Positions 6,300 to 32,302 of a DNA stretch of 39,367 bases are shown here, piece by piece. The position numbers were made by a program, and so were the translations under genes. This DNA comes from Candidatus Eiseniibacteriota bacterium (lineage in GTDB: Bacteria > Orphanbacterota > Orphanbacteria > Orphanbacterales > Orphanbacteraceae): the NCBI GenBank assembly GCA_043809585.1, contig JBDROZ010000096.1, positions 1 through 39,367 of the forward strand. The letters are read 5' to 3'. The notes beneath the pieces are model-generated. The model did no database searches. It worked only from the letters and a program-made list of their open reading frames with translations, and was not told where the DNA came from. Positions within the stretch are counted from its first letter, which is position 1. Each line of letters starts with the position of its first letter.

Positions 6300-7832
6300 G
6301 TGCTCGCTCGCGTAGTGTCGAGCGCCCTCCTCGGCGTGGACGCCTACCGGGTGACCGTCGAGGCGGACCTATCGGGCGGACTGCCGGCCTTCTCCCTCGT
6401 CGGCCTCCCCGACCCGTCGGTGCGCGAGTCCCGGGAACGGGTCGCCGCCGCGGTCAAGAACTCGGGATTCCACTTCCCGGCCCGGCGGATCACGATCAAC
6501 CTCGCCCCGGCGGACATTCGGAAGGAGGGGGCCCTCTACGACCTCCCCATCGCCCTCGGGATCCTGGTCTCCTCCGAGCAGGTGCCGCCGTTTCGGTCGT
6601 GTGAGACCCTCGTGGTCGGAGAGCTCTCCTTGGATGGCGATCTCCGACCGGTGCGGGGCGTTCTTCCCATGGCGATTCTCGCCCGGCGGCTCGGCCTGAA
6701 GAGGATCGTCCTGCCGCCGGAAAACGCGGAGGAGGCGGCGATCGTGGACGGGATCGACACCTTTCCGGTCCGCTCCCTCCGGGACGCCGTCGGCCTGCTT
6801 CTCGCCCCCGAGGAGGAGAGGCCCTACGAACGGAGGGGGGGCGAGGGGAACGGCGGCGCATGCGCACTCGACCTGGCCGATGTCCGGGGGCAGGAGCGGG
6901 CGCGTCGGGCGGTGGAGGTCGCCGCGGCGGGGGGGCACAACCTGATCTTTCTCGGGCCCCCCGGCTCGGGGAAGACGATGATCGCGAGGCGCCTCCCGTC
7001 GATCCTCCCCGAGCTTTCCCGTGAGGAGGCCCTCGACGTGACCCGCGTCTATTCGGTGGCCGGCCTCCTCCCGGCGGGCTCGTCGCTCATCCGGCGGCGC
7101 CCCTTCCGCGCGCCCCATCACTCGACGTCCGACGCGGGGCTCGTGGGTGGAGGGGCCTACCCGAAGCCCGGGGAGGTATCCCTCGCCCACCACGGCGTCC
7201 TCTTCCTCGACGAACTGCCCGAGTTCAAGAAGAACGTCTTGGAACTCCTCCGCCAACCCCTCGAGGAAGGGACCGTCCGCCTATCCCGGGCCGCCGTCCG
7301 GCTCTCCTACCCCGCCGCGTTCATGCTCGCCGCCGCCATGAACCCCTGCCCCTGCGGCTATCACGGCGAGACCAGGTGCACATGCTCCCACACACAGGTC
7401 GCCCGCTATGTCGGGCGCGTGTCGGGGCCTCTCATGGACCGGATCGACATCCACGTCGAGGTCCCGCGCGTGCCGTACAAAGATCTTGCCAAGATCGAGC
7501 CGGGGGAAGGATCGGAACCGATTCGGGAGAGGGTGATGCGGGCGAGGGAGATCCAAGTCGAGAGGTTCACGAAGTACCCCGGCCTCTTCACGAACGCGCG
7601 CATGGACTCGCGGGAGATCCGGAAGTACGCGGCGCCCGACGACGACTGCCGATTGTTACTCCGCGCCGCCATCGAGAAGCTCGGCCTCTCGGCCCGCGCC
7701 CACGACCGGATCCTCCGAGTCGCACGGACCATCGCCGACCTCGCGGGATGCGAGCATCTCGAAGCGCCGCATGTGGCCGAAGCAATCCAGTACCGGAGCC
7801 TCGACAGGCCGAGGTGGAGGGAGGGCGGGTGA
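6300..7832 (+). CDS. comM: YifB-family Mg-chelatase-like AAA+ ATPase ComM, intact
   Basis: RITINLAPADIRKEG, Walker A GPPGSGKT, RPFRAPHHS, Walker B LFLDELPEF, AAMNPCPCGY, SGPLMDRID, LSARAHDRILRVARTIADL. Confidence 0.97.
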   Translation: MLARVVSSALLGVDAYRVTVEADLSGGLPAFSLVGLPDPSVRESRERVAAAVKNSGFHFPARRITINLAPADIRKEGALYDLPIALGILVSSEQVPPFRSCETLVVGELSLDGDLRPVRGVLPMAILARRLGLKRIVLPPENAEEAAIVDGIDTFPVRSLRDAVGLLLAPEEERPYERRGGEGNGGACALDLADVRGQERARRAVEVAAAGGHNLIFLGPPGSGKTMIARRLPSILPELSREEALDVTRVYSVAGLLPAGSSLIRRRPFRAPHHSTSDAGLVGGGAYPKPGEVSLAHHGVLFLDELPEFKKNVLELLRQPLEEGTVRLSRAAVRLSYPAAFMLAAAMNPCPCGYHGETRCTCSHTQVARYVGRVSGPLMDRIDIHVEVPRVPYKDLAKIEPGEGSEPIRERVMRAREIQVERFTKYPGLFTNARMDSREIRKYAAPDDDCRLLLRAAIEKLGLSARAHDRILRVARTIADLAGCEHLEAPHVAEAIQYRSLDRPRWREGG

Positions 7833-8352
7833 GGGGAGCGGATCTAGGTCAGCTCGTTTTCCGGAGGGTTCTCGTTCTCTGCGCGACAGTCAGGGGCGGC
7901 GTGCGGGGGTCGGCCGGATGCCCGATCGACGAGTACCGGGAATGCCGCGAACGTGTGCCCGGGCCGCCGTCATTCTTCCCATCTCAGGCCGACTGCTCTC
8001 GCCAGAAGACAATGAACGGGGTAGCTGACAGATGCCAAGACTACAAAGCGTAAGGCCGCGTGGTCCTGCAGAACTTCTACGAATCTCAAGAGGTGTTCTG
8101 TGAGGCTCATGAGGACCCCCCTGATCGAACGATCGTCAGAATAGCAGCAGTTTTCGGTTCTGTCGAGGAGCAGTTCTCTCTCCCCTCCAGAATACGTCAA
8201 GCACATGCTTGAGCGAGAGAAGGGCTGGTGCGGCCGGGGACGGCTACCCGCGAGGCCCGGCCGTAGGAGGGAGGTGATCCCTCGCTCGGAGGGACGAGGT
8301 AGGAACTCATCCAGCGCAGAGGAAAAGTGAGGTGAAAAGGAGGGAGAGCATG

Positions 8353-8862
8353 CTACACGAGCCGGAGTTGAGGGGTGGTAGAGGGATCCTGCCGGGCCTC
8401 CGTCTCCCCGAATAGAATTCCATCGCGCGCCAACCAGCCGAGCACGGCACGGAAGCACGGGCTGCCGCATGTTCTCGGAAAGCGGATCGAATAGAGAGGC
8501 CCTCGACTGCCGTTCCATAAGGAATCGTCCTCGCGGAACAGATCATGATATGCATCGATGAAGTGGCCGACGTGGTATTCGAGGACCTCACCGCGGGATC
8601 TCAGCCAGGCCTCCACCCATACACGTTGCTCGTCTGTCGTAGAGCCGCGGCTCGGAACGAGAAAAACCTCGAAGTAGTCGGGCGGCCAGAAGCCGATTGA
8701 GTATTCGAACCCGTGAGGCTTGCACAACGAACCGATGATAAGGCCCTCGAAGGACTCGCACTCCTCGGCGGTGTCGGTCTCCCCGCAGAACACAAGAGAC
8801 AACATGAACCCGAATTGGCGGAACTCCCCCATGTGGAGCTTTTTCCGGAGCCTCTTCCTCAA
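8353..8862 (-). CDS. yggL: YggL/DUF469-family protein
   Basis: Signature RKRLRKKLHMGEFRQFGF and GSTTDEQRVWVEAWL. GGAGG RBS, TTG start. Confidence 0.75.
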   Translation of the reverse strand: MRKRLRKKLHMGEFRQFGFMLSLVFCGETDTAEECESFEGLIIGSLCKPHGFEYSIGFWPPDYFEVFLVPSRGSTTDEQRVWVEAWLRSRGEVLEYHVGHFIDAYHDLFREDDSLWNGSRGPLYSIRFPRTCGSPCFRAVLGWLARDGILFGETEARQDPSTTPQLRLV

Positions 8863-8918
8863 GCGAACGCGCCTCCCGAGTTAGATACAGGAGAATTGTA
8901 TCATCATCCTGGGAAGAT

Positions 8919-10067
8919 GTGACCATAAAGGGAACTTGCAACGAACCGAGCCAAGAGCTGGATCGCCCTGTCGGTTTTGGAATGACTGCTGATGTCTTAG
9001 TCGGCGCGACCCGCCCGGCGCAACCTGGCTTGCTCCCAGCCTGTCGAGAGTCAATTCTTCATGGTTTCTTGGACGACATCGTGGTAATATTCTCGAGAAT
9101 GGACTTGATGGTTTCTGTTGTCCGCCCCCAGATAAGGAGCTTCCTCATGTGTACAATGCTGAAGGAAGTGCCCGGATCGGCATCTGAGTGTCTTCGCCTT
9201 GATCGGACCGATATCGACTTCTTCAACGTCACGCCCGAGACGGTGCGCATCGAAGTTACGCTCCGCAACGCGGGCCCGGTCCGTACGAAACCGGCGGAGC
9301 TTCCTCTGGAAGTCGCCCCTTTCGGCGCTTTTCTTCCCTGGAGTCCACTGACTACCCTGCATGTCCCGCCCATCGATCCCGGTGAGGCGCTCCTCGTGGA
9401 GGCCGAGGTCCCGGTGGCCCCGGTCCGACCGATCGGCAACCTCTTCACGACGCCGCCGGGTCGCCTGCTCACAGCCCTCGGCCTCTCCGGGGAAGATGAG
9501 GGTTCGAAGGATGTCCCCAGGTCCGCGTCTCCTCTTCGGAGCTTTCTCGAGGCGGATAGTCCTGACCGAACTCCACGATCCGGTGAGAATCCCGCACATG
9601 GGCTTTTGCCCGCGGATCCCCTCGCCCTTCTCGGTCGGGCTGGTGCCCACTGGGCAGGCAATATCAACGTTTTTGCCGGTTCTCATGCCGTCGAGAGGCA
9701 CAAGGCTCGGGCTCTCCGGATCTACCCCGGGCGCCCGAATGCGGTGATGTTCATTGTCGGTGGGCCCGAAATGGACGCCTACTCCTTCACCCTTGAAGGC
9801 GAGGGCGCTTCGTGGGATTGCTCGCTCTTTCGTGCCCCGCTGGATGGGCCGTTCACCGTGGACTTCTCCGATTGTCGAGTCATCGAGCCCGGACGGTGGT
9901 ACCCGGCTCGGCTCATGGCGATCTACTACCTCATGATGCGTCCGCAGATGGATGCGGAGAGGGGTTCTGTGGAGGTTCACGTGCAGCAGGCGTCCACCCT
10001 CAAGAGCGCGTGTGTCGAGTTCAGCCTCGATGCGGAGGCGCAAGGACCAGGGTGCTTTACAATCTAG
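8919..10067 (+). CDS. Hypothetical protein (true start probably near 9147)
   Basis: Long ORF with globular composition and an Ig/CARDB-like segment (VRIEVTLRNAG...VPPIDPGE). Confidence 0.6.
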   Translation: MTIKGTCNEPSQELDRPVGFGMTADVLVGATRPAQPGLLPACRESILHGFLDDIVVIFSRMDLMVSVVRPQIRSFLMCTMLKEVPGSASECLRLDRTDIDFFNVTPETVRIEVTLRNAGPVRTKPAELPLEVAPFGAFLPWSPLTTLHVPPIDPGEALLVEAEVPVAPVRPIGNLFTTPPGRLLTALGLSGEDEGSKDVPRSASPLRSFLEADSPDRTPRSGENPAHGLLPADPLALLGRAGAHWAGNINVFAGSHAVERHKARALRIYPGRPNAVMFIVGGPEMDAYSFTLEGEGASWDCSLFRAPLDGPFTVDFSDCRVIEPGRWYPARLMAIYYLMMRPQMDAERGSVEVHVQQASTLKSACVEFSLDAEAQGPGCFTI

Positions 10068-10085
10068 CGTGCGGGGGGCGCGGTC

Positions 10086-10559
10086 ATGCGAGAGGGGCCC
10101 AGAGCGGAGGGCGGCTTGCAGCTCGGTGTTCCACTACTCGTTCTCTTTTCGATCGTGTTGATGCTGGGCGGGAGAGCTGAGGCTCACGCGGACGACTGGT
10201 CGATTCTCAGCATGAACAGTAGCATGGGGCGCGAGCAGGTGGAAGGCGAGATGTGGGGGATGGAGATCCTCCTGGCGGCGACGAAGGACGGCTTCTCTGC
10301 CGTCGTCCAGCACGCCGAGATCGTCCCCGATGTGCCGTTCCTCGCCAAGGTTTCTGTGGACAGGGCCTCTCTGGTCTTCACCCCGCTCGAACCAGACCCC
10401 GTCTTCCGCATCTTCACCGGCGAGCTCATGGGGGATTCTCTCGTCGTGTGGCATGGGTCATCCGAGCACCACATGGAGTACCACTCCCTCCACCGCGGCC
10501 CGAGCTTCTGGCAGTGGTTTCCGGAGTCCGGGGAGAACGCCCACGATGAATCGCCGTGA
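10086..10559 (+). CDS. Hypothetical exported protein
   Basis: Hydrophobic signal ending AHA; lies directly after the previous ORF. Confidence 0.6.
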   Translation: MREGPRAEGGLQLGVPLLVLFSIVLMLGGRAEAHADDWSILSMNSSMGREQVEGEMWGMEILLAATKDGFSAVVQHAEIVPDVPFLAKVSVDRASLVFTPLEPDPVFRIFTGELMGDSLVVWHGSSEHHMEYHSLHRGPSFWQWFPESGENAHDESP

Positions 10560-10752
10560 AGGCTGTTGGAGAGAGATGATTGGGATCAGGGTATCCTTCG
10601 ATTGTTCCCCGCAGAGACGGGCGTCTCGCAAAGAAATGCGTAGAGGTCCGAGAACAGTGGGGGGGGGATTTCGTGATGGGAGCGTTTCGAGCATTCGCGC
10701 GCAGGTGGTTTTCGAGAACTGCCCTCGTCCTGCCTGTCGTCGCTATTCTTAG

Positions 10753-12359
10753 CCCAGATCCACGGGTAAGGGCGATGTGACGCAGAAGAGAGCCCTCCGA
10801 AGGCTGGGCGCGGGTTGATATTCCTCGATTGAGGGGCACGGCGACCGTAACCAATGACCGGGCGAAGCCCGGAAGACCGGGGAGACGGCGATCAGGGCAG
10901 ACTTCTCCCTCGGTGCGACATGTTTTCGGATGCGAGGTTAGCGCGCGGCGTGAAGGATGGCCTGCGCGCGGGCGAAGCGTGCGGTGACATCCGGAGCCCG
11001 GGCGAGCGCCAAAGTCATCCGCCGAGCCGAGCGGATGATCCGAGCGGCAACGCAGAACCAGTGGAATCGGAGGGCTTTGATCTGGGCGGCGCGCTCCTTC
11101 CGCGGCAGAACGAGGATCTTGAAGGCTTGCACCAGATTGTAGGCGAGCTGGGCGATCGTGAGCCACGCCCAGTTGGCGAGGAACTTCTGGCTGGGGAGCT
11201 GCCGGGCCCCGAAGCCGTTCTTGAATTCCTCGATGTAGTTCTCGATCCCGCCACGGGCGAGGTGGTGCTTGAGGAGACTCGATCCGGCCCCGCAGCGGTT
11301 GGTCAGCACACAGGTGTAGAAGAACTCGCCGAGCACGCGCTGCTCTCCCCGGTAGAACGGTTGTCGCTTGACGAGCATCCGGTAGCTCCGCGGCCATCCG
11401 TGCGGTTGATACGAGAACTCGGTCCACTCGGTCTCTTCCTGCCAGGGGTAGGGACGCCAGGAATCTTCGGCACAGTCGCCGATCCGCCGCACCAGGGCGC
11501 TCGTCTGGTGCGCCGAGATCGAGAACTCGAGATCGTGCTTCTCCGCGTACCGAGCGATTTTCTGGTCGTAGAATCCCGCGTCGAGCCGAAGCCGGACTCG
11601 TGCGTCTTTCGGGAGCCGGCCCCGCGCTTCCGAGAGAAAGCTCAGCACCCCGTCGGCGGTGTGCCGGTTGCCCGATCGAAGCCGCGTCCCCACCAAGAGC
11701 CGTTCTTCCGCCCAGAAAGCCAACAGCGGATGAAAGCCCTTCTTCCCCTCGTACCCGTAGCGAACCCCTTCCTTCAGATACCCGTGCACCTCGAAGAGGG
11801 AACTGTCCACATCGAGCGTGATCGGCCCGGCGAGACCCGCACGTTCCACCAGCCGCTGAAGCCCTCGGGCATTCACCGACTCGGGCTGGCGGATATGCCC
11901 CAAGGAAAAGGTCCGGAGTCGCTCGCCCGCCGTCGTCGGCGCCGGTGTCTCCAGGTCGTAGAGCAAGCCCCGGGTCCCCGGCTCCCCGCGAAGGACCGCC
12001 AGGTCCGAAAGAGACGATCCTCCCGCGATCAGGGTCTGCGCAATGCTCAAAACGAAATCCGACATCGGGATTCCCCGACGACGCTTCTTCACGCGGACCC
12101 GCTCCTCCAGATCGCGCACGATCCCCAATCGGTGGGCCATGTCGGTCAGCAGCTTCAGGCCGGCAAAGGAGGTCAGCTTGTCGTTCGAAGAAATATACTG
12201 GACTTTCCGGGGACGGCGTGCGATCTTCACCTGGTAAGTGCTCCTGTCTGGGGGATTCGGTTGCTGTTTCAACTTCCGTTCTACCAGATTCGGAGCACTT
12301 CTTCACGTCATATCCGCTTTCTGCCCAACAATTCACGGGCCCTTACCCGTGGATCTGGG
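10753..12359 (-). mobile_element. IS1380-family insertion sequence
   Basis: Perfect 21-bp TIR cccagatccacgggtaagggc. 5-bp TSD cttag at 10748-10752 and 12360-12364. Confidence 0.93.
10938..12272 (-). CDS. IS1380-family DDE transposase
   Basis: LTSFAGL, ITLDVDSS, GFHPLLAF, LRSGN, RLDAGFY, RGGIENYIEEFK, FLANWAWL. Confidence 0.93.
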   Translation of the reverse strand: MKQQPNPPDRSTYQVKIARRPRKVQYISSNDKLTSFAGLKLLTDMAHRLGIVRDLEERVRVKKRRRGIPMSDFVLSIAQTLIAGGSSLSDLAVLRGEPGTRGLLYDLETPAPTTAGERLRTFSLGHIRQPESVNARGLQRLVERAGLAGPITLDVDSSLFEVHGYLKEGVRYGYEGKKGFHPLLAFWAEERLLVGTRLRSGNRHTADGVLSFLSEARGRLPKDARVRLRLDAGFYDQKIARYAEKHDLEFSISAHQTSALVRRIGDCAEDSWRPYPWQEETEWTEFSYQPHGWPRSYRMLVKRQPFYRGEQRVLGEFFYTCVLTNRCGAGSSLLKHHLARGGIENYIEEFKNGFGARQLPSQKFLANWAWLTIAQLAYNLVQAFKILVLPRKERAAQIKALRFHWFCVAARIIRSARRMTLALARAPDVTARFARAQAILHAAR

Positions 12360-13468
12360 CTTAGCACCCTTTGTTGTAGCGAGAAGAATCCGGAGGAGCC
12401 CGGGAATGGGGAGGCGCACCAGTGGAATCCTCTCGGGGCGGGAACCAACGGACTTATCAATGCGATCACGATCTTCGAGGGGGGCCTCATCGCAGGGGGG
12501 AACTTCACCCAGGCGGGCGGGGTGGCGGCAAACTACATCGCGCGCTGGAACGGAACCTCCTGGAGCCCCCTCGGGTCGGGATTGAACCGTGAAGTCAAGG
12601 CCCTCACTGTCTTCGATGGCAGCCTCATCGCAGGAGGGAGTTTCACCCAGGCGGGCGGGATCACGGCAGACCTCATCGCCCGTTGGGACGGAACCTCCTG
12701 GAGTCCTCTCGGCACGGGATGGGACAACGGCTATGTCAGCGCGTTGGCTGTGTTCGATGGGAGCCTCTTCGCGGCCGGGCTAATAGATACCTTGGAGGAC
12801 CCCGAGTATGACTCGTTCGAGTGCATCGCCTGTTGGAACGGAACGTCGTGGAACTCCCTAGGGGAAGGAGTTGATGATGAGGTTCTCGCCCTCACTGTCT
12901 TCGATGGCAGTCTCATTGCAGGAGGAGCGTTCACCCGAGCAGGCGGGGTCTGGGCGAATTACGTCGCCCGCTGGGATGGAATGTCCTGGAACCCGCTCGG
13001 GGCGGGAATGAGCAATGATGTCTTCGCTCTCACGGTGTTCGAGGGCAGCCTCATCGCAGGAGCGGGGTTCACTTTGCGGGATGGGAACATAACGTCCAAC
13101 GTCGCCAGCTGGGACGGAACCTCCTGGAACCCCCTTGCGGCAGGAACGAGCGGTCACGTTCACGCCCTCACAATATTTGATGGAAACATCGTCGCCGGAG
13201 GAGAGTTCACTCGGGCGAGCGGGGTCTCGGCAAACCACATCGCCCGCTGGGACGGAGCCTCGTGGAGGTTCCTCGAGACAGGTACGAACGGCACCGTCCA
13301 GACACTCACGGTCTTCGATAGGAGCCTTGTCGTTGGGGGAAGTTTCACCTTTGCGGGCGGGATGGTGGTGAACAACATAGCCCGGTGGCGATAGGAGCTC
13401 TGTTCCTGGGCAAGAACCCTGAGGGGTTCGCAGGGATCGTTCCTACGGGAGAGGCGGAGGAGTGCCTG

Positions 13469-14734
13469 ATGAAATCCCTTCGAACGGTGCTGCTCGTGAG
13501 CATCTCAAGAATTCTTATGATGCCGGCCGTCATCGTTGTTTTGGCCACCCTGTCATGCGATGACAAGAGTCCCGAAGAACCTGCGGGTGGTGAACCTCCG
13601 CAGGCCTGCTTCACCGTGGCCCCGGGGTCAGGGACGACGGACACAGATTTTCAATTCGATGCCTCCTGCTCCACGGACAAGGAGGATCCCGTCTCCATTA
13701 TCCAGGTCCGTTGGGACTGGGAGAACGATGGGACGTGGGACACCCAGTGGGTGACGACGAAGAGCGCGTCCCACCGCTACGGCACGACCGGAACCAGGAC
13801 CGCCCGCCTCGTTGTGAAGGACGCAGGGGACCTCGTAGACGATACTACGGTGACGGTGCAGGTGGAGGAACAGCCTACCCCGCCGCCCGGCGACATGGTC
13901 TTGGTTTCTGCCGGTAGCTTCACGATGGGGAGCGACCCGGGGGAGGGAAACCTGGACGAGGAGCCCGAGCACCACCCGTACATCAGCGTCTACTACATTG
14001 ACCTCTACGAAGTGACGAACACCATGTATGCTGATGCCCTCAACTGGGCAATTGCGCGTGACAAAGCGTTCTGGAACGGATCCGATGCCGTCCGCTCTTC
14101 GACCGACGAGACGATCTACTTGGAGGTCTCCTGGCAGAATTGCCGGATCGACATCGACCCCCTCGGATCGGTCTTCGTCGTGCATTCCACTTACGAGAAG
14201 CAACCGGTCAAAGTCTCGTGGTATGGGGCGGTGGCGTACTGCAATTGGAGGAGCGAGCGGGAGGGGCGATCGCTCTGCTACAATACGAGCACGTGGGAAT
14301 GCGATTTCGATGCCAACGGTTATCGCCTCCCGACGGAGGCGGAGTGGTAAAAGGCGGCGAGGGGCTCCTCGGGCGAGAGGACCTACCCGTGGGGGGATGA
14401 AGCGCCAGACTGCGAGATCGTGAACGCATACATCGACACGTGGTGTGTTTCGGGAGAGACTCCCGTTGGCTCGTATCCAACAGGGCGGTCTCCATATGGC
14501 CTCTACGACATGGCGGGCAATGTCTGGGAGTGGTGCAACGACTGGTACGATTACATGTACTACAGCTCTTCCCCGAGCATAGATCCTCGGGGTCCATCGA
14601 CTGGGACCGCCCGGGTGTGGCGCGGCGGCTCACATAGGGACGGAGAGAAGCATCTCCGGTGCTCCTATCGATATAGCGTCCTCGACCCGTCCGCCGCCCG
14701 TGACGTTGGGTTTAGGTGTGCACGTGACCAGTGA
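13469..14734 (+). pseudogene. PKD + FGE-sulfatase (SUMF1/CLec-fold) lipoprotein with internal nonsense codon
   Basis: LSC lipobox, PKD domain, RLPTEAEW-TAA-KAARG (TAA at 14348 where the paralog has Glu), continuing in frame to GLYDMAGNVWEW...VGFRC. Confidence 0.88.
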
Positions 14735-15085
14735 TTGCGCATGGCTCAAGCATTCCATGTTATGGTTTCCAAGCCGGGAGAGCCGGGGCGCAGTTCCCCG
14801 GTCGGTGCAGTCAGGCATGTTGGATGAGGACGGGGGCAGCAACTCATTCCTCGCTCATGTCTCACGACGACAGGTGCCTGGGCGAAGGGTACTGTCGTAC
14901 TGGGGCATCGCGTCCCGTAGACACGACAGGGAGGATCTTTCGAGGATTGGTTCGTGTCCCCCCGTTACATTGGAACGGACGAGCAGGGAAACTGCTTATA
15001 GACGGACTCGCACGGGGAGTGATACCATGAAAGCGCGCAGAATCGTTCGCTTGCCGTCAGCGACAAGACATAGGGAGGTCTGATC

Positions 15086-22273: not shown

Positions 22274-22281
22274 CGCAACGG

Positions 22282-23733: not shown

Positions 23734-23757
23734 CCTATTGGACCTTGGTCCAACAGG
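23734..23757. promoter_or_regulatory. Palindromic operator candidate
   Basis: cctattggacc-tt-ggtccaacagg (10/11 arms); related site at 24863-24881. Confidence 0.5.
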
Positions 23758-23807
23758 CGTAGATCCCTGGCTACGACGGGAAGGGGCGGATGAGGGACGC
23801 GCCGGCG

Positions 23808-24452
23808 CTAATCCGTTGAGGCGGAAGAATCTGGGGGCCCCTCGATCCCGATCCGGGCCACCAAGCGTACCAGTTCGGCCAAGGACTCGACCTCCATTTT
23901 CTCCATGACTCGTGCCCGGTGTACTTTGATGGTCTTTTCGGACGTGCCGAGCTCAAACGCCACCTGCTTGTTGAGCATACCGGTGATCACGAGCTCCATA
24001 ACCTGCCGTTCCCGGGGTGTTAGCCGGTCAGCCCGGGCTTGTACATCGGCGATTTCGGCCTCCTCGACGCGCTGAGATCTGTTCCGATCCAGGGCTCGGT
24101 TGATCGAATCGATCAGGTCTTGGTCGTTGAAAGGCTTGGGCAGGAAATCGACAGCGCCGCTTTTCATGGCCTTCACCGCCATGCGGATATCCCCGTGCCC
24201 CGTGATGAAGACGATGGGAACCTCCAAACCGCGACGGGCCATCTCCTTCTGCAAGTCCAGCCCGCTCATGCGGGGCATGCGCACGTCCAGCACGACACAG
24301 GAGGGAACATCCGGTAGTACGTGCTCCAGGAACTGGTGCGCCGAGCTGAATACCTCGACCCGCAAACCGACCGAGGAGAGCAGACGGGAGAGGGCTCGTC
24401 GCACCGATGCACTGTCGTCTACGACGAAAACTATGGGCTGAGAGTCGTCCAT
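23808..24452 (-). CDS. FixJ/LuxR-family response regulator
   Basis: VFVVDD, LDVRMP, FITGHGD, FLPKPF, LTPRERQV...SEKTIKVHRARVMEKM. GGAGGAG RBS; the ORF stays open upstream to 24752. Confidence 0.92.
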   Translation of the reverse strand: MDDSQPIVFVVDDSASVRRALSRLLSSVGLRVEVFSSAHQFLEHVLPDVPSCVVLDVRMPRMSGLDLQKEMARRGLEVPIVFITGHGDIRMAVKAMKSGAVDFLPKPFNDQDLIDSINRALDRNRSQRVEEAEIADVQARADRLTPRERQVMELVITGMLNKQVAFELGTSEKTIKVHRARVMEKMEVESLAELVRLVARIGIEGPPDSSASTD

Positions 24453-24899
24453 CCGGCGCTCCTCCAACCTCGGCTGCTCCTCCGGATCTGTTTTTCGCAG
24501 TAAGGACCATCGCAGCTTCACCATTATAGAGTAAGCACGATCGTTTTCCGCAAGAGCTTGTTGAACGGCCCGATGGGCCGAGCCGGATGACGGCGGATCG
24601 GCTGCAAGCAAAGACCGGGCTTGCCGAAGCTCGCGGCACGTCGCGCCAAGGCATTGCAGGAGATCGTGAAACGAATCGCGCAGATCCCGGAGTTGATCTT
24701 CGCTTTGATCGGCACGGGCTCCCTGCTGCTTGTCTTGAATGCGGCTCAGCAAGCTCTACCCCGTCCTTTCCCCTGTCCGAGTCTTGACGAATCCCTTAGT
24801 ATCATGGGGAAATCGGTGCCGGATCCTGCTGGTATTTTAGGGTGATTCGTGCCTGGCGACAATGGGACTTAGGTCCAATAGCCGACTCGGACGAACCGG

Positions 24900-26993
24900 A
24901 TGGGATTCGTGTGGGAGATCTCGGGGAGCAGGCAAAAAAATGAGGTCGTCGGCGTGTCGACGGTAAGATCGGCGTTGTTCTGCTCGCTCCTCGTATTGTG
25001 CCTTGCCGGAGTCTCGTTGGCTCTGAATGGCGCAGACACTCTCGCTCCGGACCGGGCCCAGAACCTGCTCGATCGAGCTCGGGCGGTTCGAAGCAATGAC
25101 CCGCACCTTGCCTTGGAGTTATGTGAGGATGCTCTCGGCCTCGCGAAAACACAGAATCTTCCCGTCCTGCGCGTGAGAGCCCTGATCGGGAAGGGCGTGA
25201 GCAAGTACTTCATGGGCGAGTATACGAGCGCGCTCATCCACTATCAGGAGGCTCGGGAGCTGGCGGAGGGGCTCGGCAACCTGGAACTTCAAGCGGATGT
25301 GCTCAACAACATCGGCATCCTGCATTTCGTTTGGGGCGAGTATGATCAAGCCCTCGACTACTACATCCAGTCCTTAGCCATACGCCGGGAATTGGGCGAT
25401 GAGACCGGAATCGGGAGAGCCTATAACAATATCGCGAATATCTACCAGACGATGGGCGACTATGATCAAGCCCTGGACCATTATGGGCGGTCGCTAGAAA
25501 TCTATGAGTCACAATCAGACACGGCCATAATCGCCAGTTCCCTGAACAACATCGGGTTGCTCTACTACGATCAGGGAGAATACGACCGATCGCTAGGGTC
25601 CTATTCCCGCGCGCTGGCCCTGGAATCGATAATCAACGACAAAGCCGGCATGGCATTAACGTTGAACAACATGGGGCAGGTCTTCGAAGCCCTCGGGACC
25701 CTAGACGAAGCCATGGAGCATTACGAGCGCTCCTTGTCGTTGCGCCGCGAGATCGATGACCGCCAGGGAATATCGGTCTGCCTTCATAATATCGGTGTCA
25801 TTCATGTCACGCAAGAATCTTACGATTCGGGCATCGACTACCTCGAAAGAGCCTTGGGTCTTGCCGAGGATCTGCAGATCCGGGAGCTGATCCGGGATGA
25901 CTTGGAGAGCCTCGCCATTGCCCACGAGGCCGCCGGCGACTACGAACGAGCCCTGGCCTACTACAAGCGCTTCAAAGAGGTCCAAGATGAGCTGTTTGGC
26001 GCCGAACGCACGCGGCAAATCGCCCTGGCGCAGACACGCTTCGAAGTCGACTTGAAGGATCGGGAGATCCAGATGCTGAAGAAAGAAACGGAGATCGAGC
26101 GCTTCCGACGACAACTGCTCTTGGTTGTCGCGGGATTGGCCTTGATCATCATTCTCCTTTTGTTGAATCGCTACATGTTTCAGCGGCGAGCGCATAGTAG
26201 GATCGCTCAGGCGAACGAGGCGCTCCGTATCGCCCACGACGAGTTGGGGCGGGCGACACGCGATGAACTGGCCCACGTGAGCCGGGTCACCACTATGGGC
26301 GAGCTGGCGGCGGCCTTCGCCCATGAGTTGAACCAGCCCCTGGCCGCGATTCGGGCGAACGCTCGGGCGGGCCATAACTTCCTCGATCGGGCGGAACCCG
26401 ATCGAAACGAAGCGTGCGCCGCGCTGATCGACATCGGCGAAGACGCCGAGCGCGCCCAGGACATCATTGTCCGATTGCGCGACATGATGCGAAAGGGGGA
26501 ACAGAAGCAGCAGCAGGTCGATTTGCGTCGAGTGCTCCACGATGCGGTAGCCATGATCCACGCCGAAGCGGAACGTCTCGGTGTCGGTTTGGACCTGAGG
26601 ATCGAGGATGCCCTGCCCTCTGTCGTGGGTGACCGCATCCAGCTGCAGCAGGTGGTCTTGAATCTGATTCAGAACGGTTTGGCCGTGATGGCCGGCCGGG
26701 ACGGCGTGTTGACCCTAACGGGGAAGCGTTTGCCCGACGATTCGGTGTGCGTGGGTGTGACCGATTCAGGGCCGCCCGTGGACGATCATATCCTGACGGA
26801 CATGTTCGAGCCGTTCTTCACGACGAAGCGGAACGGCTTGGGCATGGGATTAGCGATCTGTCGGACCATTATCGAGAGCCACGGCGGAAGTATCGAGGCC
26901 GAGCGGCGTGAAACCGGCGGCGTGACAGTGAGCTTCCGGTTGCCGAAGCCACCACATGGTTCCGGTGACACATCTAAGCGCGTACCGCAATGA
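24900..26993 (+). CDS. TPR-sensor histidine kinase with FixL-like kinase core
   Basis: TPRs (LNNIG...), TM helix, MGELAAAFAHELNQPL, QLQQVVLNL, FEPFFTTK, GLGMGLAIC. Confidence 0.92.
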   Translation: MGFVWEISGSRQKNEVVGVSTVRSALFCSLLVLCLAGVSLALNGADTLAPDRAQNLLDRARAVRSNDPHLALELCEDALGLAKTQNLPVLRVRALIGKGVSKYFMGEYTSALIHYQEARELAEGLGNLELQADVLNNIGILHFVWGEYDQALDYYIQSLAIRRELGDETGIGRAYNNIANIYQTMGDYDQALDHYGRSLEIYESQSDTAIIASSLNNIGLLYYDQGEYDRSLGSYSRALALESIINDKAGMALTLNNMGQVFEALGTLDEAMEHYERSLSLRREIDDRQGISVCLHNIGVIHVTQESYDSGIDYLERALGLAEDLQIRELIRDDLESLAIAHEAAGDYERALAYYKRFKEVQDELFGAERTRQIALAQTRFEVDLKDREIQMLKKETEIERFRRQLLLVVAGLALIIILLLLNRYMFQRRAHSRIAQANEALRIAHDELGRATRDELAHVSRVTTMGELAAAFAHELNQPLAAIRANARAGHNFLDRAEPDRNEACAALIDIGEDAERAQDIIVRLRDMMRKGEQKQQQVDLRRVLHDAVAMIHAEAERLGVGLDLRIEDALPSVVGDRIQLQQVVLNLIQNGLAVMAGRDGVLTLTGKRLPDDSVCVGVTDSGPPVDDHILTDMFEPFFTTKRNGLGMGLAICRTIIESHGGSIEAERRETGGVTVSFRLPKPPHGSGDTSKRVPQ

Positions 26994-26995
26994 GG

Positions 26996-27097
26996 ACGGT
27001 CGGTACTCGAGGTACCGGATCATCTTCTCCCGCCACGTGCGCAACGGTGGGTCGTGCCGCATTCCCAGAACCGGTAAGTGTCCTTCGATACCCCGAG
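26996..27097 (-). pseudogene. Remnant of the XRE-HTH gene
   Basis: Reads LGVSKDTYRFWECGTT, then after a 1-nt shift PLRTWREKMIRYLEY, matching the HTH at 31660-31926. Confidence 0.8.
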
Positions 27098-27101
27098 CGA
27101 T

Positions 27102-27554
27102 ACCTGCTCGGCGACGCAGGTCGCCAGCTACGTCGGGCGCGTGTCGGGACCTTTGATGGACCGGATCGACATCCACGTCGAGGTGCCGCGCGTTCCCTAC
27201 AAAGATCTCGCCAGGATCGAGCCGGGGGAAGGGTCGGAGCCGGTGAGGGAGAGAGTGATGCGGGCGAGGGAGATCCAGGTCGAGCGGTTCACGAAGTACC
27301 CCGGCCTCTTCACCAACGCCCGGATGGACTCCCGGGAGATCCGGAAGTACGCCGCGCCGGACGACGACTGCCGGCTTCTTCTCCGTGCCGCCATCGAGAA
27401 GCTCGGCCTCTCCGCCCGCGCCCATGACCGGATCCTTCGCGTGGCGCGCACCATCGCCGACCTCGCGGGACGCGAGAACCTCGAGGCCCCTCACGTCGCC
27501 GAGGCAATCCAGTACCGGAGTTTGGATCGTCCGCGGTGGAGGGAGGGGGGATGA
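27102..27554 (+). pseudogene. comM: comM 3' fragment, copy 3 (junction deleted)
   Basis: TCSATQVASYVGRVSGPLMD...RPRWREGG, near-identical protein to intact ComM. Confidence 0.95.
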
Positions 27555-27573
27555 GGTGTCGCACCCTCAAACC

Positions 27574-28312
27574 AGGGACAGTCACCTAATAAGAGACTCC
27601 TGATCGAGGTGGAGGGATGCCGAGAATCCCGAGAATCGTCCTCGTCGGCTATCCGCATCATGTGACCCAGCGGGGAAACGACCGGTGCGATGTCTTCTTC
27701 TCGGATGAAGACCACCGTACCTATCTTGGCCTATTGAAGAAGCAGACGAACCGGTACGAATTAGAGGTCGTCGGCTACTGTCTGTTGTCCAACCATGTCC
27801 ATCTGATCGTGATTCCTCGAGCGCTCGATGCCAGGGCCAAGGCGATCGGAAGGACTCACTTCCAGTACACGCAGCACGTGAATCGGGATCACGGCCGGAG
27901 CGGACATCTGTGGCAAAACCGATTCTATTCGTGTCCTCTGGAGTGAGAGCATTTCTGGGCCGCCCTTGCTTACATCGAGAGAAACCCGGTCCGCGTCGGC
28001 ATCGTTTCGAGGGCGGAGGACTATCCCTGGTCGAGCGCGCGATGGCACCTCGGATTGGAGGCCGAAAACGACTTGCTCGACGCAGCGGTCTGGAGGGACC
28101 TCGCCCCCGGGGTGAACTGGAGGGCAGTGATCGATCGGAAAGGAGGAGAGGAGCAGGGGGAGGGAATCCGCTCATACACTCGCACCGGCCGACCTCTGAT
28201 GCCCGAACAAGTGCTCGATCACTTGGAGAGAGAGCGAGGATGCCGACTTCGAGCCCTCCCCGTAGGCCGACCCTGGTGGAAGCGGCATCTGGAACAACAG
28301 GTGACTGTCCCT
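27574..28312 (+). mobile_element. Y1/RAYT-like element bounded by 14-bp inverted repeats
   Basis: agggacagtcacct (27574-27587) and aggtgactgtccct (28299-28312) flank the transposase. Confidence 0.7.
27617..28312 (+). pseudogene. REP-associated tyrosine (HUH, Y1_Tnp) transposase with in-frame TGA
   Basis: HHVTQRGN, YCLLSNHVHL, GHLWQNRF, TGA at 27944, then YIERNPVRVG...DYPWSS in frame. Confidence 0.88.
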
Positions 28313-28646
28313 ATATATCAGTGTAGGCGCTATTCGTTCCCCCGACCTCGCCGATCCTCCGGAAATGCTCCTCGGGCCGAAAGTGCTCGGATCCGCGAAA
28401 CATCATGTGCTCGAAGAGAGGGGAGAGGCCGCGGGTGCCAGGCCGCTCGTTCAGCCCGCCCGTGCGGTACCAGACCTGAACCGACGCGAGAGGAACCGAA
28501 TGCTTCTCGATGACACAGATTCGGAGGCCGTTCGGGAGCGTGTACTGAGTGATGTCGCCGTCCGCGGCGCGAAGGGACGTGGAAGCAAGAAAGACGAGGA
28601 TCGCCCCGAGAGCTCGGCCCGGAATGAATGATGACGAGACCGACAT
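28311..28646 (-). pseudogene. N-terminal fragment of an M16 (pitrilysin) peptidase
   Basis: TLPNGLR, VWYRTGG, GLSPLFEHMMFRGS (HxxEH altered), GGTNSAYT; truncated at the Y1 element IR. Confidence 0.85.
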
Positions 28647-28661
28647 GACCGGACCTCCTTC

Positions 28662-31445
28662 TCAGGCCGTCGCCGATGGTTTGAGCCTGCGAATGATGAG
28701 GAGAGAGATATCATCGGCCTGTTCGCATCCCGAAGAGAATCGGTCCACGGATTCGAGAACCGAGGCGAGAATTCCGGAGGCGGAGACACGGCGGTTCTCC
28801 TCGAGAACCCGGATGAGGCGAGCCTCCTCGAACATTCCGCCCGCGGCATCGACTGCCTCGGTGATGCCGTCGCTGTAAACCGTAAGCAGACTTTCCGTCG
28901 TCATGGGGAGAGTTCCCTCTTCGAAGGAAACTTCGGGCACGATGCCAACCATGATGCCGCCCGCGGAGAGCCGGGCAGGCGGCGTTTCGGAGCCCGCGAA
29001 CACGAGGGGGGGATTGTGCCCTGCGTTGACGTAGCGAAGCTCGGCGGTCCGAAGGTCGAGGATCCCGACGAAGAGAGTGATGAACATCTCCGGGGAAGTG
29101 GATGCATACAGATGTTCGTTCAGCTCGCGCACGAGGTCGGCGAGGCCGGTACCCCTCTGGCGCAATCGGCTCCGGATCAATGTGTGCGCGCTCGACATGA
29201 GCATGGATGGGCCGATGCCTTTGCCGGAGACGTCGCCGAGCGCGAGAGCGATGTGTTCGGCATCGATCGCGAAGAGATCGTAGTAGTCTCCCCCGACCGC
29301 CTTCGCCGGGCGGCAGATCGCCGCGAACTCCCACCCTTTGGCCCGGGGCAGCTCCTTGGGAAAGAGGTTCTGCTGCACTTGGCGCGCGATCGTGAGGTCC
29401 CGGGCTTGCTCTGCTTCCCGCTTCGCGACTTCGATAAGCTCCGCGTTCTCGATCGCGAGCCCCATTTGGGCCGCGACCGTGACGAGAAGCTCCTTGTCCT
29501 CGCGGCTAAATGGTTCTTCGGAGAGCTTCGCGGCGAGGGCCATGCAGCCGAGGAGCCCGCTATGGCTCCGAAGCGCGATGAGGAGCTCGCAAGGGGTGTC
29601 GCCGCCCGCTTCTCTCGCGGCGGTTTCGGCACGGCCGGCGGGGGGGAGGTCGATCCAGGGCTTTCCCTCTTCGAGCGCGCGCAGTCCCGCGACCGCGGTT
29701 TCTTCCAAGCGGTCCCCTCGACCGCTCCCGTCCGTGCCAGTGCTGCCCGCCGGGCCCGAGTTCCCTCCGGCCGTCCGGGTCCACACGCATTGGACCTCTT
29801 CGGGCTTCGATCCCCGCAGATAGAACGCAATCCGGCCCGGATGGAGCGCATCGTAAACCGCGTTCCCCGCGTCTTGGAAGATCTCCTCTCGCTCCCTGAG
29901 CAGGGAGATCCCCTCGCCGAGCGAGAGCAAGATCCGGCGCGCATCGTAGGTCTCGCGAAAGAAGCGTCGGTCGATGCGGCGCATGAGCGGACGGTTCACG
30001 CGGGCTATGGCGCCCATCACCAAGAGGGTCGTCCCCGCCGCGATCCCGGCGACGGCCGGCACCGATGTCCCGATTCGTGACCGCCCCTGCCGGATCGACT
30101 CCATGACGAGGAGAAAGAGGAGGAGCCCCTCGATCAGGCGCACCCCCCGCGAGAGAAAAAGGTGCTGGAGACCTCGGCGCACGATGAACCGGATGCCGAA
30201 GGCGCGGCGCGCGAGCACGGCATAGGCGAACGCTACCGGCAGGCACGCGATGAGCAGCGCAGGGAGAACCACATGGAGGCCGAAGAGAAACAGGCGAAGG
30301 GCCTGTGTCTCCGGCCGGATCAGCTGCCAGAGCAGAACCGTCGGAGGGAAGAGAATCCAGAGCAAGATCATGGCCCAGGCGAGGAAGCCGGTCTCGACGA
30401 CCCGGAGGCGCGCCTCGGGGCTGCCCCGGGTCTCCCTCCGCTGAGCGAGGAGAAGGAGCGCAACCATCCCCAAGGACCAAACGAGAAGGACAAGCGTGAT
30501 CCACGTCTGAGACTGGATCCACTCTACCAGCGCGAGAAGCGTCTTCCAGAATCCGCTCGGCCAGGCTTGGATTTCTTGAATCGCGGCGAGGCAGCTGATC
30601 ACGCCGAGCGAGGCGAGCGGGAGGTAGAAGACCCATCGCCACCTGAAGAACCAGCCGCCCAAGCGCGTGCGATTCGGGAAGTCGGCGAGAACGCGCGGGC
30701 CGAGGGCGAGAAGGAGCGGCTCTCCCGCGGAGGCCGCTAAGTTGTAAACGGTTATGAGCCAGATCGGCCAGAGGATCACCATCTCCCCGGACATGCAAAA
30801 CACCATGCCAATGGAGAGAAGCAGGAGAGAGACGTGGAAGGCGGCGCTGTCGTGAAGGCGGAGCCATCCGATGGGGCTTCCGACGAGGAGGAGAAGAAGC
30901 GCGAGCGCGACCCACGGGCCGAAGGGGAAGAACGCCTGCGCGAAGCCCGTGATCTGCGCTTCCGGCCATTCCCCTTTGAGGAGAGAGATTCCGGACCAGC
31001 TGAAGCCCGCGCGACCGCCTCCCCCGCTCGGCGCGAGCGGCATGATCCCCGTCTGCTCGACCCCGTCCCGTAGCCATGTGAACTCCACGGGGTCTCCGGC
31101 GGATCCGTGAATGAACACGCGGTAGTAGGCCGCGGGGTCGTCCGTGAGCCGCACGCCGTTCACCGCGACGACGAGATCCCCTTGGCGAAGACCGATGAGG
31201 CCGATCAGGTGCTCGGGCCCTACCTCTCCCCACTGCTTCATCCCACCGTCGCGGATGATCCGACCGCGCTCGTCGAAGCTCCCGTAGGTGCTGCTAAGCC
31301 ATGTATCCAACGGGATGAAGCGGGACTTGTTGACGAGCGACCAGAAGGACGCGCCGATCTGGAGCGCCAGGAGCCCGGTGAGAATGCCGACCGCGGCGAG
31401 CCTCAGTGCAAGGATGGGCTTCGGGATCGCGCCCTGATCGGACAC
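28662..31445 (-). CDS. Membrane SpoIIE/PP2C phosphatase (PDZ-TM-GAF-PP2C)
   Basis: GLRQGDLVVAVNG (PDZ), TM helices, VGGDYYD, LGDVSGKG, YVNAGHNPP, YSDGITEA, DDISLL. GGAGGT RBS before GTG 31445. Confidence 0.9.
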   Translation of the reverse strand: MSDQGAIPKPILALRLAAVGILTGLLALQIGASFWSLVNKSRFIPLDTWLSSTYGSFDERGRIIRDGGMKQWGEVGPEHLIGLIGLRQGDLVVAVNGVRLTDDPAAYYRVFIHGSAGDPVEFTWLRDGVEQTGIMPLAPSGGGGRAGFSWSGISLLKGEWPEAQITGFAQAFFPFGPWVALALLLLLVGSPIGWLRLHDSAAFHVSLLLLSIGMVFCMSGEMVILWPIWLITVYNLAASAGEPLLLALGPRVLADFPNRTRLGGWFFRWRWVFYLPLASLGVISCLAAIQEIQAWPSGFWKTLLALVEWIQSQTWITLVLLVWSLGMVALLLLAQRRETRGSPEARLRVVETGFLAWAMILLWILFPPTVLLWQLIRPETQALRLFLFGLHVVLPALLIACLPVAFAYAVLARRAFGIRFIVRRGLQHLFLSRGVRLIEGLLLFLLVMESIRQGRSRIGTSVPAVAGIAAGTTLLVMGAIARVNRPLMRRIDRRFFRETYDARRILLSLGEGISLLREREEIFQDAGNAVYDALHPGRIAFYLRGSKPEEVQCVWTRTAGGNSGPAGSTGTDGSGRGDRLEETAVAGLRALEEGKPWIDLPPAGRAETAAREAGGDTPCELLIALRSHSGLLGCMALAAKLSEEPFSREDKELLVTVAAQMGLAIENAELIEVAKREAEQARDLTIARQVQQNLFPKELPRAKGWEFAAICRPAKAVGGDYYDLFAIDAEHIALALGDVSGKGIGPSMLMSSAHTLIRSRLRQRGTGLADLVRELNEHLYASTSPEMFITLFVGILDLRTAELRYVNAGHNPPLVFAGSETPPARLSAGGIMVGIVPEVSFEEGTLPMTTESLLTVYSDGITEAVDAAGGMFEEARLIRVLEENRRVSASGILASVLESVDRFSSGCEQADDISLLIIRRLKPSATA

Positions 31446-31559
31446 GAGATTACCTCCGCGCGGGGAGCCCAAGAGTGCGCCAGAGATCTGTGGCGAATCC
31501 TGTACCGAATAGTATCCCGGCTCTTCGTCTATGTCTACCGCAGGTTCGGCGGACCTCGA

Positions 31560-31926
31560 ATCCTCCGTGCCCAGCCCCACAGCGGTCTCGGCTCGAGCCC
31601 AAGAAACTTGGTGAACCTTCTGCGAAAGCCCTCGGCTCTTCCTTGCCGCCCAGAACCTATCAGGTAGAGTGTCCCCAATCGGGTCCGTATGGCCCCCCCA
31701 GAAACCGAACGATCCCCGGCCATTGCCGGTGCAACGGATGGGTTGCGTTGCACTCCCAGAATCGATAGGTGTCTTTCGATACCCCGAGTTGCTCCCCAAC
31801 CTCTCTCTGGAGCAGTCCGAGGTCCGATCTCCGCTTTCGGAGATGGTCCCCCAAGGTCTTGAGATCCCTAGGATAAGCCGGATCAAGGGGTTTGGCGGCC
31901 TTGAGCCGCAAACCGGCAGAAGGCAA
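31560..31926 (-). pseudogene. Frameshifted double XRE-HTH abutting comM-3' copy 4
   Basis: LRLKAAKPLDPAYPRDLKTLGDHLRKRR...; the second domain PIGDTLPDRFWAARKSRGLSQ lies in another frame. Confidence 0.85.
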
Positions 31927-31934
31927 CGCAACGG

Positions 31935-32302
31935 TGTCCCTGCGGCTACCATGGTGAAGAACGATGTACTTGCTCCACGACCCAGGTCGCCCGCTACGTC
32001 GGTCGCGTCTCGGGACCCTTGATGGACCGGATCGACATCCACGTCGAGGTGCCGCGCGTTCCTTATAAGGACCTCGCGAAGATCGAGCCGGGGGAAGGGT
32101 CGGAGCCGGTGAAGGAGCGGGTGATGCAGGCGAGGGATATTCAAGTGGATCGCTTCGCGAAGTACCCGGAGATCTTCACGAACGCGAGGATGGACTCGCG
32201 GGAGATCAGGAGGTTCGCGGCGCCCGACGACGACTGCCGTTTGCTTCTTCGCGCCGCCATCGAGAAGCTTGGCCTCTCGGCCCGCGCCCACGACCGGATC
32301 CT
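31935..32302 (+). pseudogene. comM: comM 3' fragment, copy 4, truncated by a MITE-like element
   Basis: CPCGYHGEERCTCS...SARAHDRIL, after which homology stops abruptly. Confidence 0.93.

Follow-up and report, generated by a model that had tools for sequence, protein, structure and literature searches.

The DNA analysed here (the window) is the complete 39.4-kb contig C96 (39,367 nucleotides, JBDROZ010000096.1) of a Candidatus Eiseniibacteriota bacterium. It carries one intact comM gene followed by three further copies of only its 3′ part, with cargo genes between the copies. This array is probably a stack of three islands that have no recombinase gene of their own and that lie at the attachment (att) site of an element whose large serine recombinase (LSR) is specific for comM. 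The source genome (G000) is a bin of 4.24 Mb in 123 contigs, with an estimated completeness of 97.5% and contamination of 2%, and it also includes contigs C34, C39, C97 and C99. G003 and G005 are genomes of sister genera, and L-numbers denote other loci or contigs.

The comM gene and its displaced tails

Intact comM (6300–7832, plus strand, 510 aa) matched the Pfam families ChlI, Mg_chelatase and Mg_chelatase_C with E-values from 3e-94 to 2e-32. Repeat finding returned one family of four co-oriented copies, starting at 7347, 22282, 27069/27102 and 31935 and spaced by 14935, 4787 and 4866 bp. The first copy, tail A, is the last 165 codons of the intact gene, from 7335, and the three displaced copies (tails B, C and D) cover the last ~485 bp of the gene. 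Self-blastn of the window gave identities of 88.6% over 484 bp for A/B (E = 9e-180), 87.4% over 460 bp for B/C, 87.4% over 443 bp for A/C, 86.3% over 336 bp for C/D and 84.3% over 369 bp for A/D, with E-values of 1e-111 to 1e-180 among the tail copies. One intact comM with three co-oriented 3′ copies had been described in the initial annotation of the window, and repeat finding, blastn and Pfam confirmed this layout. Residues 1–345 of comM were encoded solely on C96 when the whole of G000 was searched by tblastn and blastn.

Tails A, B and C reach the comM stop codon, and their sequences part directly after it. Tail B (22282–22767, plus strand) is complete to the stop, and its protein is 95% identical to that of tail A. 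Tail C (27102–27554, plus strand) shows 96% protein identity to A and matches Mg_chelatase_C (E = 9e-34); it lacks its first ~45 bp (~15 codons) and the att junction. Tail D (31935–32302, plus strand) ends after ~123 codons, cut at 32302 by a dispersed repeat of ~215 bp (32302–32520, no strand assigned) that has copies of 80–86% identity on many other G000 contigs. The three units were read on the plus strand. Unit 1 (7347–22281, 14.9 kb) comprises tail A, cargo, an IS66 insertion sequence (IS) and a helix-turn-helix (HTH) gene; unit 2 (22282–27101, 4.8 kb) comprises tail B, cargo and an HTH remnant, both units being recognised by repeat spacing and Pfam. Unit 3 (27102–31934, 4.8 kb) comprises tail C, small unknown open reading frames (ORFs), a phosphatase gene and an HTH pseudogene. 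The G+C content is 0.70–0.72 in comM and 0.56–0.64 across the array.

The HTH gene at the end of unit 1 (21767–22273, minus strand) encodes an intact double XRE-HTH protein of 168 aa with two stretches matching Pfam HTH_3, and it matches PHROG transcriptional-repressor families. Its first ~380 bp recur before tail D (21903–22649 and 31557–32302, 77.7% identity over 749 bp) as a pseudogene (31557–31934, minus strand) with frameshifts and stops in its translation. Before tail C, only a 57-bp remnant of ~20 codons is left (27041–27097, minus strand; blastn identity of 82.8% to 31731–31788), and the att junction next to it is deleted. The same minus-strand HTH gene had been reported before each displaced copy. 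This was borne out, in intact, remnant and frameshifted form, respectively, with the correction that copy C has lost both its att junction and its first ~45 bp. Decay thus rises away from comM, from an intact HTH gene to a remnant and a frameshifted copy, and the last tail is truncated, which fits the earlier suggestion that units were stacked with the newest first. The HTH protein is most likely a repressor or regulator of the LSR element.

Families of tyrosine and serine recombinases had no matches among the 34 window ORFs scanned with Pfam; 17 ORFs, including 12 of those 34, were also compared with NCBIfam. The IS66 genes were the sole mobility genes found in the window, with no integration or transfer genes, and the claim that no unit contains an integrase was therefore upheld.

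The four tails A to D differ from one another by 11–18% at the nucleotide level, mostly by silent changes. The ratio of nonsynonymous to synonymous divergence (dN/dS) among tails A, B, C, D and C34b was 0.04–0.15, at dS of 0.47–0.79, in all 10 pairs, each compared over 109–148 codons. Since local decay would approach neutrality, these values indicate that the tails diverged under selection as working comM ends in separate lineages and were then imported, rather than being decaying local duplicates; they support the view that the tails are alleles that were functional elsewhere. The unit-borne tail A is joined in frame to the comM 5′ part exactly at the recombination point, in agreement with the proposal that a replacement 3′ end keeps comM whole.

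A tree was built from 29 tails, after a G005 duplicate and the short, poorly aligned tail C34a were dropped from 31 rows. It grouped the copies by genome, with support of 99/97 for the G000 clade, 97/90 for L030 and 99/98 for L055. This clustering may reflect close donors or partial homogenisation of the copies, and both would fit the tree. Shared variants form mosaic patterns among the five tails. In G006, the closest relative with an intact comM, a decayed comM tail (C24:6595–6897, L021; residues 410–510, two stops) lies 1.1 kb downstream of comM, with no recognisable HTH gene at it.

Attachment sites at the junctions

The attB-type site in comM (7318–7372, plus strand) reads ..GCCGCCATGAACCCC TG CCCCTGCGGCTA.. 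with the central TG at 7347–7348, and was recognised by comparison with the related attL, attR and attP sites. The integration TG lies at comM codon 350, in a C-P-C-G motif. When the junctions were aligned on TG, the attB consensus was ..ATGAACCCC TG CCCCTGCGG. Two attR sites are present in the window, both on the plus strand: attR 1 (22258–22283), with the P arm CCGGTAAAAGGCAACGCAACGG and the central TG, and attR 3 (31911–31936), with the P arm CCGGCAGAAGGCAACGCAACGG and TG. These two sites and those of C34, G003 and G005 follow the form ..AAAGGCAACGCAACGG TG YCCNTGCGG. The attL of G003, ..ATGAATCCC TG AGGTTGCGTGCCTTTTTACCGG, is embedded in the 3′-terminal part of the LSR coding frame. Each complete tail starts exactly at the crossover TG.

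The P′ arm has the reverse-complement sequence of the P arm. Metagenome contig L073 carries an uninterrupted attP, GCAAAAAGGCAACGCAACGG TG CTGTTGCGTTGCCCTTTTGC, at a distance of 2.8 kb behind a comM tail; this attP lies between the HTH gene and a C-terminal LSR remnant of 129 codons. The LSR abuts the 5′ half of comM at attL, and the HTH gene abuts the 3′ half at attR, its first codons (gene at 21767–22273) falling within the P arm. From the two arms and the genes flanking attP, the LSR and HTH genes are therefore co-directional across attP in the circle and are separated by integration. This is a textbook set of serine-integrase junctions, and the sequence alignment showed that the HTH/comM-3′ junctions in the window correspond to the predicted attR of a comM-specific LSR element. 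By eye, the P and B arms agree at 6 of the 12 innermost bases. A search of the window for extra P or P′ arms returned only the two known P arms, together with five P′-like matches, a number at chance level (3.2 expected).

Some left arms elsewhere have a B-like inner part, namely those of L030 site 2 (2 nt), L119/L132 site 2 (4 nt), C39 (3 nt) and C99 (~14 nt). Together with the mosaic tails, these hybrid arms indicate that homologous exchange acts on the array too. The C99 site (C99:8043–8832, L002) has a diverged HTH gene (53% identity), ~14 bases of the B arm instead of the P arm, TG and a tail; over its first 47 codons, this tail is 85% identical to comM, and over the remainder 43%. It looks like a hybrid formed by gene conversion or recombination.

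The cognate LSR and its element

A search of the whole of G000 found one serine recombinase in the genome, at the first bases of C97 (C97:1–1530, L005). It is at least 499 aa long and has Resolvase and Recombinase domains. Five Phage_integrase matches, on C41, C104, C42, C23 and C82, were the tyrosine recombinases of the genome, and none was on C96, C34 or C99. In both sister genera, comM is split at the same TG, after residues 1–352 in G003 and 1–350 in G005, and each 5′ part abuts an LSR that is 69% (G003) or 65% (G005) identical to the C97 LSR. The comM tails of G003 and G005 are located on other contigs, and a homologue of the HTH gene stands directly before each, at the same junction as in the window. 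The idea of an array without a recombinase therefore has to be given up, as a cognate LSR is present on C97 and its homologues abut the comM 5′ part at the same TG in G003 and G005.

Upstream of the LSR, G003 and G005 have a WG-repeat gene, an unnamed ORF and a gene for a 1030-aa TrwB/TraG-like ATPase; only G003 has an extra unnamed ORF of 315 aa directly before the LSR. Farther in, both elements carry restriction and other defence-type genes. When this element core (LSR, TrwB-like ATPase, WG-repeat gene and others) was searched for in assembled G000, only the C97 LSR was found. Synteny holds upstream of comM in each of the five relatives that were compared, and it does not extend to the downstream DNA.

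The attL of C97 matches comM at 25 of 31 bases, 19 of them contiguous and ending at TG. The alignment score was 42, and the maximum in 200 shuffles was 35. This attL represents a pseudo-attB or, alternatively, a minimal remnant of comM. It lies intergenic, behind an unrelated gene ending in a hydrophobic-plus-RKRRG tail, and the LSR copy of G000 is therefore not located in the intact comM.

Recurrence in other genomes and metagenomes

Exact matches to the 18-base P arm followed by TG were sought in other sequences. In genome contigs, 35 loci were returned, which came to 34 sites on 33 contigs once two duplicates had been dropped. Metagenome contigs gave 106 reported stretches, of which 76 loci were examined; with two duplicates dropped, these held 81 sites on 74 contigs. 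The HTH gene was adjacent at 21, the comM tail followed TG directly at 14, and both were present at 13 of the 34 genome sites. The corresponding numbers for the 81 metagenome sites were 61, 42 and 38, respectively. Neither HTH gene nor comM tail nor P′-like arm was seen at 12/34 genome sites, which are likely chance matches, and at 16/81 metagenome sites, where many contigs are short and absences are often due to truncation. The P arm had no match in a viral contig collection.

According to record titles, the genome contigs with an HTH gene or comM tail at the P arm belong to at least 10 phyla or classes, including Eisenbacteria, Rokubacteria, Rhodothermales, Gemmatimonadota, Verrucomicrobia, Acidobacteriota, Bacteroidota, Methylomirabilota, Chloroflexota and Gammaproteobacteria. 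These sites include comM fragments with this HTH gene adjacent, a combination that the initial annotation had proposed to look for. Full-length comM followed by one or two units was present at L030, L037, L055 and L057; L057 is a complete chromosome, and L037 and L055 are contigs of 1–2 Mb. At least two comM 3′ ends were found on 15 of 107 contigs. Near-empty units also occur: their sites are 1.4 kb apart on L137 and 527 bp apart on L084. Cargo elsewhere consists mainly of large secreted proteins (DUF5122 propellers, FG-GAP, FlgD_ig and type IX secretion system tails), IS elements and small modules. Among 127 unit ORFs scanned elsewhere, one serine recombinase was found, an unrelated N-terminal piece on L027, and the other mobility genes were IS transposases. 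None of five array-bearing genomes searched had an LSR with over 37% identity to the C97 enzyme. The architecture is real and widespread, and it usually occurs without the enzyme.

Within G000 itself, tblastn and blastn against the whole genome detected two further HTH/comM-tail junctions on C34, one HTH/comM-3′ junction and one lone comM tail on C99, and a junction remnant of ~90 bp on C39. Over 1276 bp, C34 matches part of unit 3 at 91% identity. No recombinase was found among the 40 ORFs scanned on C34 and C99 or among 22 on C39.

On metagenome contig L091 (9564 bp), the last 100 bases recur near the start. Two HTH-P sites are present, the first type of flank being a comM tail, at one site, and the second, at the other, unrelated DNA with a gene for an extracytoplasmic function-type sigma factor. 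The contig may be a circle of ~9.4 kb or a tandem repeat, and its content is unlike a simple unit. On L057 (8371–11744), inverted copies of an IS3-family element, each with ORFs of 88 and 293 aa, flank the HTH/comM-tail junction of a 2.4-kb unit. On L027 (3995–4549), an HTH-P arm is followed by B′-like sequence and then by the N-terminal part of another serine recombinase, 29% identical and directed away from the site, which may represent a second recombinase family at the same landing place.

Proposed mechanism and alternative explanations

The autonomous element has an attP with two palindromic arms around TG, the LSR gene reading into one arm and the double-HTH gene starting in the other. 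A unit consists of TG, a complete comM tail, cargo, the HTH gene and a P arm, and it offers a site for handling by the LSR while its own enzyme is absent. In the mechanism that we propose, such units would travel with the LSR element, or be handled by it, as cis-mobilizable elements do. By a first route, accretion, an element located before a unit would excise by using the more distal attR, so that the unit in between is taken with it. Once integrated into a new comM, the element would exit via the proximal attR and the unit would stay, so that its tail would be fused to the 5′ half of the host comM and the old host tail would be shifted one place down. By a second route, the attR of a unit circle would recombine with the attL of a resident element, in an excision-type reaction for which a directionality factor would be needed. 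The outcome would be a restored comM with the element left behind attP, an arrangement that may be fossilised on L073. Both routes rely solely on reactions known for serine integrases, and either of them, when repeated, would stack units with the newest beside comM, consistent with the decay gradient. A unit would acquire and deliver its replacement tail in one of these ways.

Several observations weigh against this mechanism. The window has no attL, attP or LSR, and end overlaps gave no link between it and C97. Recombination of attR with attB is not a reaction of canonical serine integrases, and a simple cassette-into-comM step is therefore not expected; the two routes depend on a distal attR that is already in place or on a circular unit, of which neither was observed, and they do not account for the origin of the very first unit. 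The tails cluster within each genome, where gene conversion would give the same picture as close donors, and the B-like left arms suggest that homologous exchange has acted in addition to site-specific exchange. The extra C34 and C99 junctions may come from a strain mixture in the bin. An intact LSR element in composite with a unit was not found; L073 has a unit, then attP and an LSR remnant.

The main rival, which we regard as possible but rather unlikely, is that homologous recombination does the stacking and that an LSR element made only the first HTH/comM-3′ scar. DNA bounded by comM and a comM tail would enter a naive comM by two crossovers after natural transformation, or a circle would enter by a single crossover through the 485-bp tail. 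Tails of 0.5 kb would be ample homology arms, and the hybrid left arms (C39, C99, L030 and L119/L132), the mosaic variants shared among the five tails, the clustering of tails by genome and the lack of a close C97-type LSR in all five array-bearing genomes (0/5) are in line with it; repair of comM via recombination is discussed for Acinetobacter in the available text of PMC11472951. However, the complete tails all begin at TG and the P arm is identical base for base across phyla, which homology alone would not maintain. The 11–16% nucleotide divergence among tails A, B, C, D and C34b would also strongly lower homologous recombination, and this explanation gives no account of the first placement of a tail on the left side of cargo.

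Another alternative, which we hold to be unlikely, is that the units are a distinct class of hitch-hikers of reversed polarity, entering by an excision-type reaction of their attR with the attL of a resident LSR element and leaving by an integration-type reaction between attB, in the repaired comM, and the attP that stayed next to the element. If this were true, the units would mend the competence gene of the host and leave a spare landing site and a repressor-like HTH protein, and this leftover site and HTH protein could blunt later invasions. The unit would then be a gene-repairing parasite of a gene-breaking parasite, across many phyla.

The integrases of phiC31, Bxb1 and A118 block synapsis of attL and attR unless a directionality factor is present, and then pair attL with attR only. 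This behaviour bears on a further explanation, that of the initial annotation, in which the units are cassettes mobilised in trans: a circle with an HTH-P/TG/comM-tail site would recombine with attB in comM under an LSR supplied in trans, an integron-like insertion in one step in which comM is always regenerated. The substrates and products of this reaction fit the observed sites exactly, very small units such as those on L137 and L084 agree with it, and so does the identity of 6/12 innermost bases between the P and B arms. Hybrid attL and attR sites would nevertheless be kept from synapsis without a directionality factor and with it would pair only mutually, and no unit circle was seen, the circular-looking L091 having two sites and extra DNA. 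We therefore consider one-step insertion in trans improbable.

It is very improbable that the array is an assembly artefact in which strain variants of one locus were strung together via the shared comM tail. The bin consists of 123 contigs with an estimated contamination of 2%, a related but different array is present on C34 (91% identical over 1276 bp), and the short public contigs of candidate source runs bridge none of the junctions. Against this, the four tails differ by 11–18%, each has its own flanks on both sides, and the same layout is found in independent assemblies, including the single-contig chromosome L057 and the 1–2 Mb contigs L037 and L055.

Three other classes of element were considered and rejected. 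The initial annotation had called the array integron-like, which does not hold: no intI, attI or attC was found, the five Phage_integrase matches of the genome are on other contigs, the units are 4.8–14.9 kb long and contain several genes on both strands, and the repeat combines a fragment of a gene with an LSR half-site. A Tn7-like comM island of the AbaR type was discarded, with no Tn7 family match in the window ORFs and a 485-bp repeat that starts at the LSR crossover site, as was a tyrosine-integrase island, with no tyrosine recombinase among the window ORFs and the matches of the genome elsewhere.

Cargo of the units and other features of the contig

The cargo of unit 1 consists of a YggL-like gene, a gene for an 846-aa DUF5122 beta-propeller protein, two PKD/FGE-sulfatase genes and unknown ORFs. 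The PKD/FGE-sulfatase paralogues (13385–14734 and 16065–18209) are 72% identical over ~1 kb; the first one is spread over two ORFs and probably broken, and the second contains 285-bp tandem PKD repeats. The IS66 element (19515–21749, plus strand) lies beside the HTH gene and comprises tnpA (19515–19829), tnpB (19833–20159) and tnpC (20169–21749), all on the plus strand, with matches to NCBIfam IS66 TnpA and TnpB and to Pfam DDE_Tnp_IS66 (E = 2e-78).

Unit 2 carries an unknown ORF of 238 aa (22941–23657, minus strand) and, by Pfam, a LuxR-type response regulator (23808–24752, minus strand) and a TPR histidine kinase (24900–26993, plus strand). The cargo of unit 3 includes a PDZ-GAF-SpoIIE phosphatase gene (28662 to ~31400, minus strand), recognised by Pfam and by a 910-aa homologue on C34.

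The ends of the window (1–141 and 39224–39364) are copies of a palindromic repeat of ~141 bp, mutually inverted and 90% complementary, and part of the same repeat was also seen at 94–136 and 36786–36828. This repeat terminates or interrupts dozens of other G000 contigs and is therefore the probable cause of assembly breaks. Another dispersed repeat, of ~180 bp (2086–2267), sits where two ORFs meet, upstream of a gene for an FlgD_ig protein, and has copies of 87–97% identity on at least 15 other contigs. An end-overlap search joining C97 to any other contig found none. The contigs from three candidate source runs, which are 180–380 bp long and of low depth, bridged no junction and gave no tail-to-tail joint.

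Comparison with known systems and biological meaning

Among described systems, the array comes nearest to cis-mobilizable elements, to pseudo-SCC islands without ccr and to the island arrays at ssrA in Dehalococcoides. The staphylococcal cassette chromosome (SCC) forms composite islands at rlmH in staphylococci, where serine-recombinase islands stand in tandem and some of them lack ccr (pseudo-SCC). SCC inserts in the last codons of rlmH, so that no coding replacement is needed, and uses paired CcrA/B or CcrC enzymes. The units of the window appear comparable to SCC in tandem stacking and in recombinase-less members.

Elements that target comM with an LSR are known and common. In the available text of Durrant et al. 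2022 (PMC10083194), Mg-chelatase/comM homologues are the target of 12.4% of predicted site-specific LSRs. Those elements resemble the one described here in the Resolvase and Recombinase domains, the short palindromic attP, the central dinucleotide and the comM target. They are described there as disrupting the gene, whereas the window has no element and only recombinase-less units that restore comM with a 165-codon tail. Mobile genetic elements that interrupt comM, and its possible repair by recombination, are discussed for Acinetobacter in the portion of PMC11472951 available to us.

Cis-mobilizable elements (CIMEs) are by definition, in the text seen of Guedon et al. 2017 (PMC5704250), islands without a recombinase that are kept in tandem where an att site lies. 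Like the units, the CIMEs that arise by accretion with integrative and conjugative or integrative and mobilizable elements have no integration or transfer genes, keep their att sites and stand one behind another at the 3′ part of their target gene, and they are thought to move together with an autonomous relative (PMC5704250). The units of the window are bounded by att sites, with the TG of attB or attR on the left and a P arm plus TG on the right, and the right site of unit 2 has been lost. The cases in the same text of PMC5704250 have tyrosine integrases, a shared core and a short gene end, whereas here a serine integrase, hybrid attL and attR sites and a 485-bp gene end are found. On this comparison, the array is probably one of CIME-type passengers of a comM-specific LSR island.

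The islands at ssrA in Dehalococcoides, as far as the accessible text of McMurdie et al. 2011 (PMC3146451) describes them, are also arranged in tandem downstream of a single-copy gene, and many are without an integration module. They have a reverse-strand serine recombinase of ~540 aa beside attL, with the att site in its 3′ end, and the authors suggest accretion of the CIME type (PMC3146451). Their repeat is 20 bp of the tmRNA gene, whereas here it is one third of a protein gene, with a conserved HTH gene at the far end.

The earlier statement that the architecture is not recognised as a described system was only partly right. Analogues are known, in the text available of PMC5704250 and PMC3146451, and the combination with a replacement tail appears undescribed. 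No description of recombinase-less comM-repairing arrays was found in the literature searched; the supplements of PMC10083194, outside that search, may list such sites. Two features appear to be new: a strictly directional serine integrase with passengers that bear a 165-codon replacement gene end, and a spread over many phyla with an arm conserved base for base.

According to the arrays, comM in many environmental phyla is repeatedly re-capped by foreign 3′ ends, rather than merely disrupted and repaired, while recombinase-less cargo piles up behind it. ComM is needed for integrating heterologous DNA in natural transformation, and its gene is the commonest target of site-specific serine integrases. 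The cargo in the window consists of secreted beta-propeller and PKD proteins and signalling genes. The arrays would be a readable record of past invasions, and they supply natural variants of attB, attP, attL and attR for one integrase family. They also offer a testable case of non-autonomous DNA that would exploit a strictly directional recombinase, with the chemistry of passenger insertion as the main interest.

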